Below, piece after piece: positions 39,745-48,267 of a DNA stretch of 64,000 nt. Each line of letters starts with the position of its first letter. The stretch's first letter is position 1. A program made the position numbers and the translations under genes. The stretch lies in the NCBI RefSeq assembly GCF_003334815.1, contig NZ_QOWO01000012.1; one strand, 5' to 3'. This DNA comes from Escherichia coli. GTDB lineage: Bacteria > Pseudomonadota > Gammaproteobacteria > Enterobacterales > Enterobacteriaceae. The notes below the pieces were generated by a model. The model did not search any database. It was not told the origin of the DNA and saw only the letters and a list, made by a program, of their open reading frames with translations.

Positions 39745-39748
39745 ACAC

Positions 39749-39990
39749 TGCCGGATGCGGCGCGAGCGCCTTATCCGGCCTACGGGTCGGCAACAGTTGT
39801 AGGCCTGATAAGACGCGACAGCGTCGCATCAGGCATTGATTGCCGGATGCGGCACAAGTGCCTTATCCGGCCTACAGGTCGGCAATAGTTGTAGGCCTGA
39901 TAAGACGCGACAGCGTCGCATCAGGCATTGATTGCCGGATGCGGCGCGAGCGCCTTATCCGGCCTACGGGTCGTGCATCCGACAACACCG
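39749..39990. repeat. BIME: tandem 92-bp units each carrying an inverted REP pair (2 full units plus a partial third)
   Basis: ccggatgcggcgcgagcgccttatccggcctacgggtcggcaacagttgtaggcctgataagacgcgacagcgtcgcatcaggcattgattg repeated from 39751 and from 39843. Confidence 0.9.
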
Positions 39991-40010
39991 AATTTACAGG
40001 AACACAGAAC

Positions 40011-40835
40011 ATGCAAAACATTACTCAGTCCTGGTTTGTCCAGGGAATGATCAAAGCCACCACCGACGCCTGGCTGAAAGGCTGGGATGAGCGCAACGGC
40101 GGCAACCTGACGCTACGCCTGGATGACGCCGATATCGCACCATATCACGACAATTTCCACCAACAACCGCGCTATATCCCGCTCAGCCAGCCCATGCCTT
40201 TACTGGCAAATACACCGTTTATTGTCACCGGCTCGGGCAAATTCTTCCGTAACGTCCAGCTTGATCCTGCGGCTAACTTAGGCATCGTAAAAGTCGACAG
40301 CGACGGCGCGGGCTACCACATTCTTTGGGGGTTAACCAACGAAGCCGTCCCCACTTCCGAACTTCCGGCTCACTTCCTTTCCCACTGCGAGCGCATTAAA
40401 GCCACCAACGGCAAAGATCGGGTGATCATGCACTGCCACGCCACCAACCTGATCGCCCTCACCTATGTACTTGAAAACGACACCGCGGTCTTCACTCGCC
40501 AACTGTGGGAAGGCAGCACCGAGTGTCTGGTGGTATTCCCGGATGGCGTTGGCATTTTGCCGTGGATGGTGCCCGGCACGGACGAAATCGGCCAGGCGAC
40601 CGCACAAGAGATGCAAAAACATTCGCTGGTGTTGTGGCCCTTCCACGGCGTCTTCGGCAGCGGACCGACGCTGGATGAAACCTTCGGTTTAATCGACACC
40701 GCAGAAAAATCAGCACAAGTATTAGTGAAGGTTTATTCGATGGGCGGCATGAAACAGACCATCAGCCGTGAAGAGTTGATAGCGCTCGGCAAGCGTTTCG
40801 GCGTTACGCCACTCGCCAGTGCGCTGGCGCTGTAA
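40011..40835 (+). CDS. rhaD: Rhamnulose-1-phosphate aldolase
   Basis: 274 aa from [37 protein letters not shown]; ORF track extends upstream through the REP cluster. Confidence 0.96.
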
Positions 40836-40844
40836 GGAGCAAAC

Positions 40845-41159
40845 ATGATCCGCAAAGCCTTTGTCATGCAGGTAAACCCCGACGCCCACGAAGAGTATCA
40901 GCGTCGGCATAATCCCATCTGGCCAGAACTGGAAGCAGTGCTGAAATCTCACGGTGCGCATAACTACGCCATCTATCTCGACAAAGCGCGTAATCTGCTG
41001 TTTGCCATGGTAGAGATTGAATCTGAAGAACGCTGGAATGCGGTTGCCAGCACTGATGTTTGCCAACGTTGGTGGAAATATATGACCGATGTTATGCCCG
41101 CTAACCCGGATAACAGCCCGGTGAGTAGCGAGCTGCAAGAAGTGTTTTACCTGCCGTAA
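40845..41159 (+). CDS. rhaM: L-rhamnose mutarotase
   Basis: 104 aa [46 protein letters not shown]. Confidence 0.95.
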
Positions 41160-41459
41160 TTGCCCAATGTGCCAGAGATGCCTCCGGCACAATATTTTAA
41201 ATTTCGATTTGAAAAATTAAACATATTACATCTCCCGGTAAGTTATATTTCCCTGATACATTGTGAGTAAATCACAAAAATAATGAATAACCCATTAATG
41301 ATTCATGTGGTTTATTTAAATAACCATTATGTGCATTACTCCGCAAATCTGACCTTTCACTCTGTCTCAAATTGTCATTGTTTACCGACATATCGCCTCT
41401 CATCACTTAATCGCTCCACCATTACAATTGATTAAAATATATTTTATGGAGTCCGATTA

Positions 41460-41906
41460 ATGGCAGCTCTTACTGCAAGCTGTATTGACCTGAATATTCA
41501 GGGCAATGGCGCTTATTCCGTTCTGAAGCAGTTGGCGACAATAGCGTTACAAAACGGTTTTATCACCGACTCACACCAGTTCCTGCAAACCCTGCTGCTG
41601 CGCGAAAAAATGCACTCTACTGGATTTGGTTCCGGTGTCGCCGTGCCGCACGGTAAAAGCGCCTGCGTTAAACAACCGTTCGTATTATTCGCCCGCAAAG
41701 CGCAGGCTATTGACTGGAAAGCCAGCGATGGCGAAGACGTCAATTGCTGGATCTGCCTCGGCGTGCCGCAAAGCGGCGAAGAGGATCAGGTCAAAATCAT
41801 CGGCACACTGTGTCGCAAAATTATTCACAAGGAATTTATTCATCAACTGCAACAGGGCGATACCGACCAGGTGCTTGCCTTGTTAAATCAAACCCTCAGC
41901 TCATAA
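41460..41906 (+). CDS. frvA: Fructose-like PTS enzyme IIA component
   Basis: 148 aa; PTS EIIA(Fru/Mtl-type) signature GSGVAVPHGK. Confidence 0.9.
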   Translation: MAALTASCIDLNIQGNGAYSVLKQLATIALQNGFITDSHQFLQTLLLREKMHSTGFGSGVAVPHGKSACVKQPFVLFARKAQAIDWKASDGEDVNCWICLGVPQSGEEDQVKIIGTLCRKIIHKEFIHQLQQGDTDQVLALLNQTLSS

Positions 41907-41916
41907 GGAAGTGGCG

Positions 41917-43368
41917 ATGGAGTCATCCTTACGTATTGTCGCGATCACCAACTGCCCCGCCGGGATCGCTCACACCTACATGGTGGCGGAAGCCCTGGAA
42001 CAGAAAGCCCGTTCTCTCGGTCATACCATAAAAGTGGAAACTCAAGGGTCCAGTGGCGTTGAAAACCGCTTATCCAGCGAAGAGATTGCCGCTGCCGATT
42101 ACGTCATTCTCGCTACCGGGCGTGGCCTGAGCGGTGATGATCGCGCGCGGTTTGCCGGGAAGAAAGTTTATGAGATTGCCATCTCCCAGGCGTTGAAAAA
42201 TATCGACCAGATTTTCAGCGAATTACCGACAAACTCGCAGCTTTTTGCCGCAGATAGCGGCGTGAAGCTTGGCAAACAGGAAGTGCAAAGCGGTAGCGTG
42301 ATGAGCCACCTGATGGCGGGCGTCTCTGCGGCGCTGCCGTTTGTCATCGGCGGTGGTATCCTGGTGGCGCTTGCCAACATGCTGGTGCAGTTCGGTTTGC
42401 CGTATACCGATATGTCGAAAGGCGCGCCGTCGTTTACCTGGGTAGTTGAATCCATCGGTTACCTTGGCTTCACCTTTATGATCCCCATCATGGGCGCTTA
42501 TATTGCCTCGTCGATTGCCGATAAACCGGCTTTCGCTCCGGCGTTTCTGGTTTGCTATCTGGCGAACGACAAAGCGCTGCTCGGCACCCAGTCGGGTGCG
42601 GGATTCCTCGGCGCGGTGGTGCTGGGGCTGGCGATTGGCTATTTCGTCTTCTGGTTCCGCAAAGTGCGCCTTGGCAAAGCATTACAACCGCTGCTCGGTT
42701 CAATGCTGATCCCGTTCGTTACTCTGCTGGTTTTCGGCGTGCTCACTTACTACGTTATCGGGCCGGTGATGTCCGACCTCATGGGCGGGCTGCTCCACTT
42801 CCTGAATACCATTCCTCCATCAATGAAGTTTGCGGCAGCGTTTCTGGTCGGTGCGATGCTGGCGTTCGATATGGGCGGCCCCATCAATAAAACCGCCTGG
42901 TTCTTCTGCTTCTCACTGCTGGAAAAACACATTTATGACTGGTACGCCATCGTCGGCGTTGTCGCGCTGATGCCGCCCGTCGCGGCGGGTCTTGCGACGT
43001 TCATTGCGCCCAAACTGTTTACCCGACAGGAAAAAGAGGCTGCCAGTAGTGCCATTGTGGTCGGTGCCACAGTCGCAACCGAACCGGCTATTCCTTACGC
43101 TCTGGCAGCTCCGTTGCCGATGATTACCGCCAATACGCTGGCGGGCGGCATTACCGGCGTGCTGGTGATCGCTTTCGGAATCAAACGTCTGGCACCTGGT
43201 TTGGGTATCTTTGACCCGCTGATCGGCCTGATGTCGCCGGTGGGTTCGTTTTATCTGGTGCTGGCGATTGGCCTCGCGCTGAACATTTCATTCATTATCG
43301 TCCTGAAAGGATTGTGGTTACGCCGCAAAGCGAAAGCCGCGCAACAGGAGCTTGTCCATGAACATTGA
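41917..43368 (+). CDS. frvB: Fructose-like PTS enzyme IIBC component
   Basis: 483 aa from MESSLRIVAITNCPAGIAHTYMVAEALEQ (EIIB Cys motif), then polytopic EIIC. Confidence 0.9.
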   Translation: MESSLRIVAITNCPAGIAHTYMVAEALEQKARSLGHTIKVETQGSSGVENRLSSEEIAAADYVILATGRGLSGDDRARFAGKKVYEIAISQALKNIDQIFSELPTNSQLFAADSGVKLGKQEVQSGSVMSHLMAGVSAALPFVIGGGILVALANMLVQFGLPYTDMSKGAPSFTWVVESIGYLGFTFMIPIMGAYIASSIADKPAFAPAFLVCYLANDKALLGTQSGAGFLGAVVLGLAIGYFVFWFRKVRLGKALQPLLGSMLIPFVTLLVFGVLTYYVIGPVMSDLMGGLLHFLNTIPPSMKFAAAFLVGAMLAFDMGGPINKTAWFFCFSLLEKHIYDWYAIVGVVALMPPVAAGLATFIAPKLFTRQEKEAASSAIVVGATVATEPAIPYALAAPLPMITANTLAGGITGVLVIAFGIKRLAPGLGIFDPLIGLMSPVGSFYLVLAIGLALNISFIIVLKGLWLRRKAKAAQQELVHEH

Positions 43369-44428
43369 GTTACTGCAACAGTTGTGCGAAGCCAGCGCCG
43401 TCAGCGGCGATGAACAGGAAGTTCGCGACATTCTGATAAACACGCTGGAACCTTGCGTGAATGAAATCACCTTCGATGGTCTGGGCAGCTTTGTTGCCCG
43501 TAAGGGGAATAAAGGTCCAAAAGTTGCCGTTGTCGGACATATGGATGAAGTCGGCTTTATGGTCACCCACATCGACGAGAGCGGTTTTCTGCGTTTTACC
43601 ACCATTGGCGGCTGGTGGAATCAGTCGATGCTCAACCACCGGGTAACCATACGCACACACAAGGGAGTGAAAATCCCTGGTGTGATTGGTTCCGTCGCGC
43701 CTCATGCGTTAACGGAAAAGCAAAAGCAACAACCGCTGTCATTTGATGAGATGTTCATTGATATTGGCGCGAACAGTCGCGAAGAGGTGGAAAAGCGCGG
43801 CGTGGAAATTGGTAATTTTATTAGCCCGGAAGCCAATTTTGCCTGCTGGGGCGAAGATAAAGTGGTCGGCAAGGCGTTGGATAACCACATCGGCTGCGCA
43901 ATGATGGCTGAACTATTGCAGACGGTGAATAATCCCGAAATTACGCTGTATGGCGTTGGCAGTGTGGAAGAAGAAGTTGGGCTACGCGGGGCGCAAACCT
44001 CGGCGGAACACATTAAACCGGACGTCGTGATCGTGTTGGATACCGCCGTAGCGGGCGATGTTCCGGGCATTGATAACATTAAATACCCGCTGAAACTGGG
44101 CCAGGGGCCGGGGCTGATGCTGTTTGACAAGCGCTACTTCCCCAACCAGAAACTGGTAGCAGCGTTAAAAAGCTGTGCCGCACATAACGATTTACCGCTG
44201 CAATTTTCCACCATGAAAACCGGTGCGACGGATGGCGGGCGCTACAACGTGATGGGCGGCGGGCGTCCGGTTGTCGCGCTGTGTCTGCCAACTCGTTATC
44301 TGCACGCCAACAGCGGTATGATTTCAAAAGCCGATTACGAAGCTCTGCTCACGCTGATACGGGGTTTTCTGACGACCTTAACTGCGGAGAAAGTCAACGC
44401 GTTTAGCCAGTTCCGTCAGGTGGATTAA
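43358..44428 (+). CDS. frvX: M42-family aminopeptidase/endoglucanase-like protein FrvX
   Basis: 356 aa from MNIELLQQLCEASAVSGDEQEVRDIL. Confidence 0.9.
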   Translation: MNIELLQQLCEASAVSGDEQEVRDILINTLEPCVNEITFDGLGSFVARKGNKGPKVAVVGHMDEVGFMVTHIDESGFLRFTTIGGWWNQSMLNHRVTIRTHKGVKIPGVIGSVAPHALTEKQKQQPLSFDEMFIDIGANSREEVEKRGVEIGNFISPEANFACWGEDKVVGKALDNHIGCAMMAELLQTVNNPEITLYGVGSVEEEVGLRGAQTSAEHIKPDVVIVLDTAVAGDVPGIDNIKYPLKLGQGPGLMLFDKRYFPNQKLVAALKSCAAHNDLPLQFSTMKTGATDGGRYNVMGGGRPVVALCLPTRYLHANSGMISKADYEALLTLIRGFLTTLTAEKVNAFSQFRQVD

Positions 44429-46176
44429 TGCTAAACGAACGCCAGTTAAAGATTGTCGATCTGCTGGAGCAACAGCCGCGCACGCCTGGCGAGCTGGCGC
44501 AACAGACTGGCGTTTCAGGCAGGACCATCCTGCGTGATATTGACTATCTCAACTTCACCCTTAACGGCAAAGCCCGCATTTTCGCCAGTGGCAGTGCGGG
44601 CTATCAGCTGGAAATCTTCGAGCGCCGCAGCTTTTTTCAGTTGCTGCAAAAGCACGATAACGACGATCGGCTGCTGGCGCTGTTATTACTGAATACTTTC
44701 ACTCCCCGTGCGCAACTCGCCTCGGCGCTTAATTTGCCAGAAACGTGGGTAGCAGAGCGTCTGCCCCGGTTAAAACAGCGTTATGAACGCACTTGTTGCC
44801 TGGCCAGCCGCCCTGGTTTGGGCCATTTCATTGATGAGACAGAAGAGAAACGCGTTATCTTGCTGGCGAACTTGCTGCGCAAAGATCCGTTTTTAATTCC
44901 GCTGGCGGGCATAACACGAGACAACCTTCAGCATTTATCCACGGCCTGCGACAACCAACACCGCTGGCCGCTCATGCAGGGTGATTATCTCTCCAGCCTG
45001 ATTCTGGCGATTTACGCCCTGCGTAATCAACTGACCGATGAGTGGCCGCAATATCCCGGTGACGAGATAAAACAAATCGTTGAACATAGCGGTCTGTTTC
45101 TTGGTGATAACGCTGTAAGAACCCTGACGGGTTTGATAGAGAAACAGCATCAGCAAGCGCAGGTAATTTCAGCCGATAATGTGCAGGGGTTGCTGCAAAG
45201 GGTGCCGGGCATCGCGTCATTGAATATTATTGATGCGCAGCTGGTTGAGAATATTACCGGGCATTTATTACGTTGCCTTGCCGCACCAGTGTGGATTGCT
45301 GAGCACCGCCAGAGCAGCATGAATAACCTGAAAGCCGCCTGGCCTGCGGCCTTTGATATGAGTCTGCACTTTATTACGCTACTGCGTGAACAGCTCGATA
45401 TTCCCCTTTTCGACAGCGATCTGATCGGTTTGTATTTTGCCTGTGCGCTGGAGCGGCATCAAAACGAACGCCAGCCGATCATTTTGCTCTCGGACCAGAA
45501 CGCGATTGCCACTATTAATCAGCTCGCCATTGAGCGCGATGTTTTAAATTGTCGGGTAATTATTGCCCGTAGCTTAAGCGAACTTGTTGCCATTCGCGAA
45601 GAGATTGAGCCGTTATTGATCATTAACAACAGCCATTATTTACTGGATGACGCGGTAAATAATTACATCACCGTAAAAAATATCATTACGGCTGCCGGTA
45701 TCGAACAAATAAAACATTTTCTGGCGACGGCATTTATTCGCCAACAGCCGGAGCGTTTTTTCTCTGCCCCCGGAAGTTTTCATTATTCGAATGTACGCGG
45801 TGAAAGCTGGCAACATATTACCCGGCAAATTTGTGCGCAATTAGTCGCACAACACCATATTACCGCCGATGAAGCACAACGCATCATCGCCCGCGAAGGC
45901 GAAGGTGAAAACCTGATTGTTAATCGCCTCGCCATCCCACATTGCTGGAGCGAACAGGAGCGACGTTTTCGTGGATTTTTTATTACCCTCGCCCAACCAG
46001 TTGAGGTGAATAACGAAGTCATTAACCATGTCTTGATCGCCTGCGCCGCCGCCGATGCGCGTCATGAGCTAAAAATATTTAGCTATCTGGCAAGCATATT
46101 GTGTCAGCATCCGGCGGAGATTATTGCCGGGTTAACAGGATATGAGGCATTTATGGAGTTACTTCACAAGGGGTGA
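44428..46176 (+). CDS. frvR: Putative frv operon transcriptional regulator FrvR
   Basis: 582 aa MLNERQLKIVDLLEQQPRTPGELAQQTGVSGRTILRDIDYLN (N-terminal HTH). Confidence 0.9.
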   Translation: MLNERQLKIVDLLEQQPRTPGELAQQTGVSGRTILRDIDYLNFTLNGKARIFASGSAGYQLEIFERRSFFQLLQKHDNDDRLLALLLLNTFTPRAQLASALNLPETWVAERLPRLKQRYERTCCLASRPGLGHFIDETEEKRVILLANLLRKDPFLIPLAGITRDNLQHLSTACDNQHRWPLMQGDYLSSLILAIYALRNQLTDEWPQYPGDEIKQIVEHSGLFLGDNAVRTLTGLIEKQHQQAQVISADNVQGLLQRVPGIASLNIIDAQLVENITGHLLRCLAAPVWIAEHRQSSMNNLKAAWPAAFDMSLHFITLLREQLDIPLFDSDLIGLYFACALERHQNERQPIILLSDQNAIATINQLAIERDVLNCRVIIARSLSELVAIREEIEPLLIINNSHYLLDDAVNNYITVKNIITAAGIEQIKHFLATAFIRQQPERFFSAPGSFHYSNVRGESWQHITRQICAQLVAQHHITADEAQRIIAREGEGENLIVNRLAIPHCWSEQERRFRGFFITLAQPVEVNNEVINHVLIACAAADARHELKIFSYLASILCQHPAEIIAGLTGYEAFMELLHKG

Positions 46177-46180
46177 ACTG

Positions 46181-46206
46181 TGTCGGATGCGCCGCATCCG
46201 ACACTG
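46181..46206. terminator. Palindromic hairpin (REP-like) between convergent frvR and yiiG
   Basis: TGTGTCGGATGCGCCGCATCCGACACTG perfect dyad. Confidence 0.6.
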
Positions 46207-46225
46207 CATTTATCATCAAAAACGT

Positions 46226-47281
46226 TTAACGCAGGCTATTATAGTCATCAACCATTTCGTTGTACTCGCGTAATGCTCTCGGGAAAGAGTCTTCGACCAT
46301 CCAGCTTGAGTTTGCGTCCTGAAGTTGCTCTTTATCCCAGTCAGAGTACGGGACTTTATCTCTGATGCGGCGAACGTATTTTTTAGCCTCGAGTTGATAC
46401 TGGCCTGCCGAATTAATAAACGAGAAATTCATGCCGCCTTTATCCGCTTCTTTGGCCTGCGCCACTAGCGTTTCCAGTTCAGACACTTTCTTCATTGCCG
46501 CTTCTGCATCAAACTTATCTTGCGATATCAGGTTATTAATTTGTTTCGCTGAAATCATGACTGCCAGAGAGTAGTAGTGGAATGTTTTCCCTTCTCTTTC
46601 TTCAATATTTTTCAGTTCCGCAAGCTGACGCTTATCATTAATTTCCTGAATCGCCGCATGATAAGATTCGGCTACAGGTTCAAAGGCTTCCAGATTTTTT
46701 AAGAATGTCTGGTGCAGCGTTTTCCCTTTCGCAAACGCATCGTCTTTATAATTTTCCTGGGTGTAATATTTATCCATTTCGTTAATGGTATTACCCAACG
46801 CCACGGCAGCATCGATATAACTCACCGCCACGCCATCAATTGGTTGCAGCGCAGGCGTTAACGCCACAGCACTTTTTACGCCTTTTTCACACTCAGCGAG
46901 GTTGGATTCACTAATGCCGTAGATGCCATAAACAGTACGCTCTTCACCGGTAGGCCCCTGTTTAAAATCTTTCAGCCAGTCAGCATAACGCGCCAGACTG
47001 CGCTGTACCGGGATCTGTAACTTGTTGTAGCACTTGATATAGACATCCATTTTTTCGTCGAAAACCGCTTGTTCATCGACCACCGGTTGCGCAGGTGTTT
47101 CAGGTTTAGCTTCTGCTTTTGCAACGGGAGCTTCAGTAGGTTTCGCTTCAGGAGCTGGTGCGGCAGGTTGACTATTGGCAGGCGGGAGCGTTTCTGTTTC
47201 GGCTTTTTTATCATCACAACCCGTCAGACCGAGGGACATGATGGCGACTATAATAGCGGAAGATAATAAATTCCTTTTCAT
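46226..47281 (-). CDS. yiiG: Uncharacterized lipoprotein YiiG (DUF3829)
   Basis: 351 aa, lipobox LTGC in MKRNLLSSAIIVAIMSLGLTGCDDKK; Ala/Pro/Glu-rich linker. Confidence 0.85.
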   Translation of the reverse strand: MKRNLLSSAIIVAIMSLGLTGCDDKKAETETLPPANSQPAAPAPEAKPTEAPVAKAEAKPETPAQPVVDEQAVFDEKMDVYIKCYNKLQIPVQRSLARYADWLKDFKQGPTGEERTVYGIYGISESNLAECEKGVKSAVALTPALQPIDGVAVSYIDAAVALGNTINEMDKYYTQENYKDDAFAKGKTLHQTFLKNLEAFEPVAESYHAAIQEINDKRQLAELKNIEEREGKTFHYYSLAVMISAKQINNLISQDKFDAEAAMKKVSELETLVAQAKEADKGGMNFSFINSAGQYQLEAKKYVRRIRDKVPYSDWDKEQLQDANSSWMVEDSFPRALREYNEMVDDYNSLR

Positions 47282-47391
47282 TTAATTGCCTTATAAATAT
47301 ATAGATAAGAGAGTGAACATAATAAATGAAAAAAGAAAACGCCACTACACGCATTTTGTTTATAAATAAAATAATAAAATTCACGAAATGA

Positions 47392-47428
47392 ATAAGTCCT
47401 GCAATTTAATATATTTCGCAGGACTTAT
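47392..47428. terminator. Hairpin downstream of fdhD (minus strand)
   Basis: AAGTCCTGCaatttaatatatttcGCAGGACTTatttt. Confidence 0.55.
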
Positions 47429-47433
47429 TTTAA

Positions 47434-48267
47434 TTAATTGCTCAAACGCTGCGGATGGGTATAAACCGTTGCCCGACCCGGTTTACAAAAACCTACCAGT
47501 GTCAGATTACAGCGCTCAGCCACTTCTACAGCAAGCGTGGTCGCGGCAGACACCGCAAACAAAATCTCTACGCCGCACATCGCCGACTTTTGCACCATTT
47601 CATAACTGGCACGACTGGAAACCAGTACCGCACCTTGCTGCCAGCTTTCCCCTTCTTGTGACCGGCGGCCTAACAGTTTGTCCAGCGCCACATGGCGACC
47701 CACGTCTTCATGCCCGCCGACCAGTTCGCCAGATGGCAACATCCAGGCAGCGGCGTGAGTACAACCAGTCAGTTGCCCCACTGGCTGAAAATCGTTGAGA
47801 TGACGTAATGCATCATCCAGTTTGTTGAGATCAAACGTCTGGGTGAACGGTAGCGGCTGCACCGGTTTTCCGATGTCATTAAGTTGCTCCACGCCGCATA
47901 CGCCACAGCCCGTACGTCCCGCCAGCGCCCGGCGGCGCTCCTTCAACCCCATAAAGCGGCGGCTGGAAAGCTCAATTTGTACTTCAAGACCATTACAGGA
48001 AGGAACGACATCCATGCCGAAGATATCGCGCGGACTTTCGATAATCCCCTCGGAAAGCGAAAAACCGAGCGCAAAGTACTCAAGGTCTTTGGGCGACGCC
48101 ATCATCACCACATGCGAAATGCCGTTGTAGACCAGCGCAACGGGAACTTCTTCCGCGACCTCATCTAACCGTGGGTGTTGTAAATCATCACGCCGCCATA
48201 ACTCAATTTGATGAACACCTGTGATATTTGTCACATTTTCGATTTCTTTTCGCTGTGTTTTTTTCAC
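47434..48267 (-). CDS. fdhD: Formate dehydrogenase sulfurtransferase/accessory protein FdhD
   Basis: 277 aa [37 protein letters not shown]. Confidence 0.94.

Follow-up and report, generated by a model that had tools for sequence, protein, structure and literature searches.

Fructose-family Enzyme II complexes of the phosphotransferase system (PTS; TC 4.A.2), among them FruA/FruB and MngA, combine EIIA(Fru/Mtl/Ntr), EIIB(Fru) and EIIC(Fru) domains with an active-site histidine and cysteine, and the M42 TET aminopeptidases, exemplified by P. horikoshii TET1-3, B. subtilis YsdC and E. coli YpdE, share a set of metal ligands and a catalytic Glu-Glu pair. In the frvABXR operon of Escherichia coli, proteins of both kinds are encoded together with a large regulator. 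The operon occupies positions 41460-46176 of a 64,000-nucleotide stretch of E. coli DNA (contig NZ_QOWO01000012.1; the whole stretch is referred to here as the window), in a 5017-bp segment that matches E. coli K-12 MG1655 with 100% identity; in MG1655 the genes are annotated frvA, frvB, frvX and frvR. It is an already known, named operon, ordinary as annotation, and its interest lies in the open question of the substrate: to our knowledge, it has counted as an orphan PTS system of K-12 for some three decades. The comparative analysis described here indicates, with high confidence from the sequences, that frvABXR is an intact and selectively maintained PTS operon with an Mga/MtlR-class regulator. 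The wider reading, in which FrvR controls the operon and the PTS imports a sugar joined to an amino acid or a short peptide, is given about an even chance as a whole.

A full-text literature search on the frv gene names, the frv operon, FrvX/M42, ypdE/sgcX/fry and PatB in combination with PTS returned no functional study and no paper assigning a substrate to frv, in line with the initial annotation of this stretch, which had described the substrate as not established. In a 2023 review of E. coli sugar transport, frvA and frvB are still putative and 'fructose-like'; a paper on M42 peptidases names the 'Frv operon' merely as an annotation source, and a genomic survey places frvA and frvB among the accessory genes separating ST131 lineages.

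Gene content and conservation of the frv operon

All four genes are located on the plus strand. The first, frvA (41460-41906, 148 aa), encodes a PTS EIIA of the Fru/Mtl/Ntr type (NF007389), and frvB (41917-43368, 483 aa from its ATG, with an alternative in-frame GTG at 41911) encodes a fructose-family PTS EIIBC (NF008493). They are followed by frvX (43358-44428, 356 aa from its ATG), for an M42 (TET-type) co-catalytic metallo-aminopeptidase (NF007367), and by frvR (44428-46176, 582 aa), for a regulator with two winged helix-turn-helix (wHTH) domains, a helical PRD-like region, an EIIB-like domain and an EIIA domain. Each protein exceeds the curated cut-off of its own NCBIfam equivalog (FrvA 290 bits against 151, FrvB 1034 against 806, FrvX 841 against 569 and FrvR 1050 against 426). 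The open reading frame positions and the gene identities proposed in the initial annotation (a Fru-type EIIA, an EIIBC, an M42 peptidase and a large HTH regulator) were therefore recovered exactly and hold by NCBIfam and Pfam, and the tight packing that it had noted can be given in numbers: a 10-nt gap between frvA and frvB, in which a Shine-Dalgarno sequence (AAGGAAG) spans the frvA stop codon, an 11-nt overlap between frvB and frvX, and a 1-nt overlap (TAATG) between frvX and frvR. The overlaps are retained in Klebsiella and Citrobacter.

The transport components appear to be complete. FrvA scores 147 bits against TIGR00848 (cut-off 103.5). Its His64, invariant in 71/71 sequences, is part of the motif GVAVPHG, which can be aligned to the active-site motif in the PtsN and IIA-Mtl structures. 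FrvB exceeds the cut-offs of TIGR00829 (103 bits) and TIGR01427 (196 bits), and its Cys13, in the motif NCPAGIAHTY, aligns with the solved Fru-type EIIB domains 5DLE, 2R48 and 2KYR and is invariant in 81/81 sequences. It is thus strongly supported at the sequence level that FrvA (His64) and FrvB (Cys13 and the EIIC channel) form a complete fructose-family Enzyme II. Unlike FruA and MngA themselves, FrvB scores far below the cut-offs of both the FruA model (271 bits) and the MngA model (256 bits), and it belongs to an orthologous group of its own that is tightly conserved, with 58-78% identity across phyla.

The same holds for the peptidase. The closest solved relative of FrvX is B. subtilis YsdC (1VHE, E 6e-86), and FrvX carries all the metal ligands and the catalytic Glu-Glu pair of the TET family. 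Residues H61, D175, E205, E206, D228 and H316 are invariant in 35/35 sequences; from the conserved M42 motifs and the PhTET2 site, we take these residues to be the two-metal site and the catalytic glutamate. FrvX is thus, with strong support from these motifs, predicted to be a catalytically competent M42 aminopeptidase. Matches to solved TET structures range from E 6e-86 to 2e-33 and include the solved dodecamers 1Y0R, 5DS0 and 9QR6, a likeness of sequence. In contrast to the TET peptidases, FrvX is encoded inside a PTS operon in overlapping frames, and M20 peptidases take its place in orthologous operons.

Comparison of the genes with other E. coli alleles and with the Citrobacter, Klebsiella and Enterobacter orthologues gave no sign of the inactivating substitutions that the initial annotation had envisaged for a dead operon. 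None of the four genes contains an internal stop, and their ratios of nonsynonymous to synonymous substitution rates (dN/dS) range from 0.00 to 0.19, the same range as rhaD, rhaM, yiiG and fdhD. FrvB is the most constrained of the four (0.00-0.07): the protein is 100% identical between K-12 and a strain with a 1.2% nucleotide difference, and 92-94% identical to those of Citrobacter and Klebsiella. The catalytic and phospho-acceptor residues of FrvA, FrvB and FrvX are invariant in every orthologue collected.

Where the operon has been lost in E. coli, the losses are independent: there are IS1-bounded deletions, which also clip yiiG, and a separate clean deletion. Several independent IS1 insertions are found directly 3' of rhaM, tied to the deletion of frvABXR and part of yiiG, for instance in E. 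coli TW14425 (locus L001, 6115-6812). The clean deletion, in which all of frvA to frvR is missing together with the beginning of the yiiG region, was found in the urinary isolate E. coli MS10711 (L004, 11373-11822). This B2-type deletion retains a porin gene, described below, together with the frv promoter/operator segment, so that an orphan promoter faces the yiiG remnant.

The FrvR regulator and the region upstream of frvA

The Mga/AtxA (PCVR) and MtlR/LicR/ManR classes of PTS-regulated regulators are composed of two wHTH domains, a PRD-like region and an EIIB-like domain, with a C-terminal EIIA domain in MtlR, and FrvR shows the same architecture. Pfam recognises HTH_11 at residues 5-60 (E 8e-10) and PTS_EIIA_2 at residues 455-560 (E 3e-13). 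In an AlphaFold2 model built on 27 enterobacterial homologues (predicted local distance difference test score 85), residues 1-65 and 76-136 form the wHTH domains, residues 139-343 are helical, and an alpha/beta domain (349-440) precedes the EIIA domain. Foldseek searches with this model retrieved MgaSpn (5WAY, 1e-10), AtxA (4R6I, 1e-9), an E. faecalis Mga-family protein (3SQN) and AcpB. The matches of the Mga/AtxA type extend over about 480-490 columns with E values of 1e-10 to 7e-9; the fold of the N-terminal wHTH matches AcpB-N, MgaSpn and AtxA, and that of the C-terminus matches PtsN, CmtB and IIA-Mtl. A sequence search of the PDB with an FrvR profile gave marginal hits only (PtsN 0.011, AcpB 0.26), and the kinship with Mga/AtxA is clear at the fold level alone. 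From this modelled fold, FrvR is assigned with high confidence to the Mga/AtxA/MtlR class. The '582-aa HTH regulator' of the initial annotation was thus right in size and in its HTH, and can be refined to this class with a C-terminal EIIA domain.

Residues 139-343, the helical region, can be superposed on the PRD regions of AtxA and MgaSpn. A conserved histidine was found in its second module only, where H279 lies within an H-L-x-R motif; none was found in the first PRD-like module. A second conserved histidine, H505, belongs to the EIIA motif R489-E490...P504-H505. H279, R282, R489, E490 and P504-H505 are invariant in 73/73 sequences from three phyla, and H279 and the EIIA motif likewise in an alignment that extends down to 21% identity; the conservation of H76, C339 and C375 does not reach beyond Enterobacterales. 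The two conserved histidines would, as in MtlR, LicR and AtxA, point to control of FrvR by PTS phosphorylation. FrvR differs from the PRD regulators in its identity to them (about 13%) and in having a single conserved histidine in the PRD part. It lacks the MtlR-type EIIB cysteine, and in that resembles Mga/AtxA, which are likewise without it. Unlike the Gram-positive PRD classes, the FrvR family is also present in the Gram-negative Enterobacterales. A word-index search (135 matches) had restricted it to Enterobacteriaceae; this was overturned by full-length orthologues in Firmicutes and Coriobacteriia, found at loci reached through FrvB, which score 270-390 bits against NF007366. Truncated FrvR clusters in the databases (for instance one of 448 aa with 1875 members) are labelled 'partial' at source and were not used as evidence of pseudogenisation.

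The region between rhaM and frvA (41160-41459, plus strand) was the '300-bp AT-rich leader' of the initial annotation. Its length and AT-richness stand (33.3% GC compared with 51.9% for the whole window), and it turns out to be not a leader but a composite of a terminator, a filler and a promoter region. Most of it is probably not transcribed with frv, and the transcribed leader would probably measure only about 25 nt.

From position 41328 on, the sequence aligns with the regions upstream of frvA in eight other genera, and three elements (a CRP-like site, an inverted repeat and a -10 hexamer) keep fixed distances from the frvA ATG across 10 aligned loci. The first, TGTGCATTACTCCGCA at 41330-41345 (plus strand; TGTG-N8-CGCA in K-12), is a candidate CRP site by consensus and conservation: TGTG-N8-CACA occurs at -130 from the ATG in 8/9 related loci scanned, two of them (L003 and L009) with a degenerate half-site. 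The second is a 20-bp inverted repeat, TTGTCATTGTTTACCGACAT, at 41372-41391 (plus strand), a candidate FrvR operator that occurs as a single copy in the 64-kb window and in each related locus, about -87 from the frvA ATG. The third is the -10-like hexamer TACAAT at 41423-41428 (plus strand), a column of the form TA[ACG][AC]AT at -37 that is kept in 10/10 aligned upstream regions. The Shine-Dalgarno sequence GGAG (41448-41451, plus strand) lies 8 nt before the frvA ATG and is invariant in all aligned loci. No credible -35 element was found, the sequence TCATCA being located at 41400-41405, and a generic promoter and terminator scan of the spacer gave no full sigma-70 match and no terminator. 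A blank sigma-70 scan is expected if the promoter depends on an activator, as the frv promoter, judged by its sequence, looks to do.

The inverted repeat is not confined to the enterobacterial loci. The form TGTCA(C/T)-N6-9-(G)TGACA recurs upstream of frvA in Listeria, Lactobacillaceae, Granulicatella, Enterococcus, Stoquefichus and Olsenella. A strict version of the pattern had 44 matches in the upstream windows (340 bp each) of 77 loci, compared with 6 in the remaining 1.28 Mb, a roughly 350-fold enrichment upstream of frvA. FrvR is the natural candidate to bind the repeat, since it is the only regulator common to these operons; the flanks cannot be aligned between phyla and the CRP site is not shared. 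The assignment of the repeat as the FrvR operator is therefore made with moderate confidence. If transcription starts about 7 nt past the -10 box, the centre of the repeat would lie at about -53, from where an activator would be well placed to contact RNA polymerase at a promoter that has no -35 element. With the Gram-positive PRD regulators, too, a palindromic operator is located shortly before a promoter of this kind. Two copies of the operator are found upstream of frvA in Enterococcus (L071, L073 and L074; 42 bp apart) and Stoquefichus (L076; 40 bp apart), a spacing of about four helical turns, and a single copy in the other taxa. A candidate operator and two FrvR histidines give a concrete handle on a Gram-positive-style PTS-regulated activator in an enterobacterium.

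Upstream of the promoter region, a hairpin followed by a T-rich tail at 41168-41191 (plus strand; TGTGCCAGAGATGCCTCCGGCACA then ATATTTTAAATTT; minimum free energy -13.3 kcal/mol) is the probable rhaM terminator. K-12 and porin-carrying E. coli are homologous up to the rhaM stop codon (41160), shortly before this hairpin, and then again only from 41328. The 167 bp in between (41161-41327, no strand assigned) are an AT-rich filler of the K-12 type without similarity to L003 9617-11394. In the alternative haplotype, this position is taken by 1.78 kb with the gene of a 464-aa RafY-type glycoporin transcribed away from frvA (L003 9656-11050 in E. coli EC974), which matches Pfam Porin_8/RafY with E 7.7e-154. 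The species is split about evenly, with the filler in 2838/5426 E. coli genomes and the porin in about 2559-2858. Relatives of the porin with 67-80% identity are located near frv in Citrobacter, Kluyvera, Enterobacter and Trabulsiella; overall, a RafY-type porin is near frv in 12/40 Enterobacterales loci and in none of the Gram-positive loci. As the outer-membrane channel of frv it is no more than a candidate: in several of these loci azlCD and a regulator stand between it and frvA, and the porin equally adjoins rhaM. Even at permissive thresholds, Rfam models gave only two chance-level matches across 40500-47500, and no riboswitch, ribonucleic antiterminator (RAT)-like element or small RNA in the spacer.

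Orthologous operons and the candidate substrate

To place the operon in a wider context, the most conserved FrvB peptides were used to scan one genome per species; 80 loci were returned, and their open reading frames were called crudely and then clustered. FrvB orthologues were found in more than 15 enterobacterial genera and, beyond these, in Listeria sensu lato (77-78% identity), Rahnella (73%), Lactobacillaceae (58-66%), Enterococcus, Granulicatella, Periweissella and Stoquefichus, and in the actinobacteria Collinsella and Olsenella (about 60%). Identity between K-12 and Listeria goaensis amounts to 37% for FrvA, 78% for FrvB, 60% for FrvX and 32% for FrvR. One contig labelled 'Chryseobacterium sp. 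18061' (CACSKA010000012.1, L032) shows the order azlCD-frvABXR-fdhD-fdoG with an FrvB 88% identical to that of E. coli, and is probably mislabelled or contaminated.

The order A-B-X(M42)-R is that of the Enterobacterales. Listeria (7/8 species) has A-B-X(M42)-PatB-R, Lactobacillaceae A-B-PatB-R, Enterococcus and Granulicatella A-B-PatB-R-PepT-like, and Collinsella and Olsenella (A)-B-PatB-R-(PepV-like). The additional 388-aa gene encodes a PatB-family C-S lyase that exceeds the TIGR04350 cut-off; it is present in the loci outside Enterobacterales, and its cluster (c3) in 47/80 of the scanned loci. The other extra genes encode M20 peptidases, PepT-like and PepV/Sapep-like, and the genes of about 580 aa encode full-length FrvR relatives, all according to NCBIfam. 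No glycosidase, sugar kinase or isomerase was found in the conserved frv core of the 80 loci. In K-12, as in all other Enterobacterales loci examined, frvX is followed by frvR with no PatB gene between them. Superficieibacter sp. (L030) is the only sampled Enterobacterales locus with a PatB-family gene by frv, which is located downstream of frvR on the opposite strand and has two further genes after it. In a library of 1.8 billion proteins, the closest non-enterobacterial relative of FrvX is 43-44% identical and is encoded in a Firmicute operon of the form RpiR, EIIABC, M42, PatB, whose EIIBC part is 61% identical to FrvB.

These neighbourhoods provide the argument about the substrate. Because non-orthologous families (M42, PepT-like M20 and PepV-like M20) replace each other as the peptidase, cleavage of a peptide bond can be argued to be part of the pathway, and because a PatB lyase is encoded in the operon, the remaining bond to the beta-carbon of cysteine or serine can be argued to be broken by elimination. 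A core that combines a lyase with, in most lineages, a metallo-aminopeptidase from one of three unrelated families, and that contains neither a glycosidase nor a kinase or isomerase, is accounted for most simply by a substrate in which a sugar is joined to an amino acid or a short peptide. The substrate is therefore proposed, with modest confidence, to be a glyco-amino acid or glycopeptide.

According to this proposal, the phosphoryl group of HPr would be passed through FrvA and FrvB to the substrate, which would be phosphorylated on its sugar during uptake. The substrate would not be plain fructose but, for instance, a small glycopeptide, or serine or cysteine bearing an O- or S-linked glycosyl group. 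Once it has been taken up, FrvX would trim the amino-acid part, and in the Gram-positive operons the PatB-family pyridoxal phosphate (PLP)-dependent beta-lyase would then split the remaining bond between sugar and amino acid. FrvR would bind TGTCA-N8-(T/C)GACA, the centre of which lies about 53 bp before the predicted start of transcription, and, probably together with CRP, would activate a promoter without a -35 element. PTS-dependent phosphorylation would set the activity of FrvR, so that the operon would be induced only during transport of the substrate.

Gene content suggests that Enterobacterales, K-12 included, have a reduced form of this module without the lyase in the operon, and that K-12 holds part of the pathway. 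It is a matter of speculation that MalY or MetC substitutes for the lyase in trans. The most far-reaching version of the proposal is that frv and its Gram-positive orthologues represent an undescribed catabolic route, in which PTS uptake is followed by aminopeptidase trimming and release of a sugar phosphate by PLP-dependent beta-elimination, under a new cross-phylum Mga/MtlR-like subfamily that recognises TGTCA-N8-TGACA; this version is possible, though rather doubtful. If the comparative inference is right, the search for the substrate narrows from a fructose-like sugar to glycosylated amino acids and peptides, and Listeria sensu lato, Companilactobacillus and Enterococcus, which have the complete operon, would be the better experimental hosts.

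Alternative explanations and related systems

Several observations weigh against the proposal that FrvR controls the import of a glycosylated amino acid or short peptide. As regards the regulator, Pfam detects no PRD in FrvR, and the MtlR-type EIIB cysteine is not conserved, the position in the first strand being Ser, Ala or Cys (LLSDQNAIAT). As regards its target, both regulatory sites of E. coli depart from the consensus by one mismatch: the right half of the K-12 CRP-like site is CGCA instead of CACA, and that of the inverted repeat is CGACA instead of TGACA. FrvX is about as near to the stand-alone, housekeeping YsdC (E 6e-86) as to PTS-linked M42 genes, and its place in the operon could be unrelated to the transported compound. 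The argument about the substrate is indirect, as it leans on a lyase gene that is absent from E. coli, and proteins of the MalY/PatB family are also known as regulators and racemases. Finally, the operon is present in 4246 of the 5426 complete E. coli genomes and absent from 1180 (22%).

This last point bears on the best-surviving alternative, that frv in E. coli is an evolutionary remnant heading for loss, an incomplete and horizontally acquired pathway without a current role in K-12. The independent IS1-mediated deletions and the clean B2-type deletion would fit such a fate, and so would the missing PatB lyase in all Enterobacterales loci, a porin-less haplotype that includes K-12, two degenerate regulatory half-sites and a promoter scan that gave no strong promoter. 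On the other hand, in genomes that have the operon, purifying selection on all four genes is comparable to that on rhaD, rhaM and fdhD, every catalytic and phospho-acceptor residue is retained, and the four-gene form without PatB is stable in more than 15 enterobacterial genera, which argues for a working configuration and not a recent accident. Decay is an improbable account of the operon. The absence of the lyase and of the RafY-type porin, together with one mismatch in each regulatory site, may explain why frv looks cryptic in the laboratory.

Less probable again is that frv encodes a redundant, back-up PTS for fructose, another simple ketohexose or a hexitol, with FrvX as a general cytoplasmic aminopeptidase that merely shares the transcript. 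Here the 271 bits of FrvB against the FruA IIBC model and the match of its EIIC to the fructose-specific subfamily have to be set against the fact that FrvB is equally distant from FruA and from the mannosylglycerate transporter MngA. Similarly, FrvX is nearest to housekeeping peptidases of the TET/YsdC type, but the link between PTS and peptidase/beta-lyase is retained across three phyla, with non-orthologous replacement of the peptidase. In several genera an operon with a PfkA-like kinase and a class II ketose-bisphosphate aldolase adjoins frv; it comes with its own Asc-type PTS, however, and was found in only 10/40 Enterobacterales loci.

This neighbouring operon is divergent from frvA and absent from the Gram-positive loci. 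Its seven genes encode the PfkA-like kinase, IIB, IIC and IIA of an Asc(SgaT)-type PTS, the aldolase, and proteins of 89 aa and about 185 aa that match no family (L006, L009, L011 and L012, at about 1700-6570; L019, L028, L029, L036, L038 and L039). It never occurs together with the RafY-type porin in the sampled loci. As a part of the frv pathway it was rejected, given its distribution, and is regarded as an accessory neighbour or a possible co-regulated unit. It has decayed to fragments in Salmonella houtenae (L007).

A role of FrvAB that is mainly sensory, controlling FrvR by phosphorylation so that FrvR acts on genes outside frv, for instance that of the divergent porin or those of the Asc-type operon, is given a similarly small probability: FrvR is the sole regulator in an 11-gene super-cluster of Klebsiella, Citrobacter, Buttiauxella and others, the intergenic region is common to both divergent operons, and the porin and the frv promoter region outlast the precise frvABXR deletion in B2-type E. 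coli, but the operator keeps a fixed distance from frvA in all taxa even where no divergent operon is present, the EIIC channel of FrvB is full and very strongly conserved (dN/dS 0.00-0.07), and the enzymes are always co-encoded.

The wider surroundings in the window are rhaD and rhaM upstream, and the convergent yiiG, then fdhD and fdoG, downstream. In the 49-bp gap between frvR and yiiG there is a GC-rich hairpin with a perfect 11-bp stem (46180-46204, no strand assigned; GTGTCGGATGCGCCGCATCCGACAC; minimum free energy -22.7 kcal/mol for 46172-46215). It is a probable bidirectional terminator or repetitive extragenic palindromic (REP)-like element; the terminator scan did not call it, for it has a T-run on neither strand. 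The rhaA-rhaD spacer (window positions about 39745-40010) measures about 450 bp in K-12 and 82 bp in TW14425, and a spurious N-terminal extension of the rhaD open reading frame looks like translated REP or bacterial interspersed mosaic element (BIME) repeats. A fucO-like lactaldehyde reductase gene, absent from K-12, is located between rhaD and rhaM in E. coli O111 FWSEC0005 (L005, 7856-9004) and Salmonella houtenae (L007, 168-1316), and in both its stop overlaps the start of rhaM.

Returning to the proposed import of a glycosylated amino acid or peptide, parts of such a route can be recognised in other systems. Skin staphylococci and corynebacteria reportedly degrade Cys-Gly-S-conjugates by a dipeptidase and a PatB C-S lyase, after uptake by a peptide transporter. 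The frv module resembles this pathway in joining a metallopeptidase to a PatB-type lyase, with trimming of the peptide before beta-elimination, and the analogy is one of logic only: the skin pathway involves a peptide transporter and not a PTS, and no sugar. The Collinsella peptidase gives a weak match, well below the cut-off, to the Cys-Gly-3M3SH dipeptidase model. E. coli malXY is like the Gram-positive frv operons in that a PTS permease is co-encoded with a PLP-dependent beta C-S lyase of the PatB/MalY family. Further, a strain-specific cluster of Lactobacillus sakei LT-13, left unexplained in its description, contains a Lac-type PTS, aminopeptidases, MalY and PRD-type regulators (PMC5845896), and thus the same triad of PTS, aminopeptidases and PatB/MalY-family lyase as the Gram-positive frv operons. 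The PTS of malXY and of the LT-13 cluster belong to the Glc and the Lac family, respectively, whereas that of frv belongs to the Fru family, and the E. coli frv operon is itself without a lyase. All E. coli M42 paralogues, we assume, sit with PTS genes. In conclusion, a route by PLP-dependent beta-elimination, if true, could explain why these paralogues and the MalX/MalY pair are found with PTS genes, and the frv comparison may likewise explain the recurrent co-location of PTS genes with MalY/PatB lyases and M42 or M20 peptidases.

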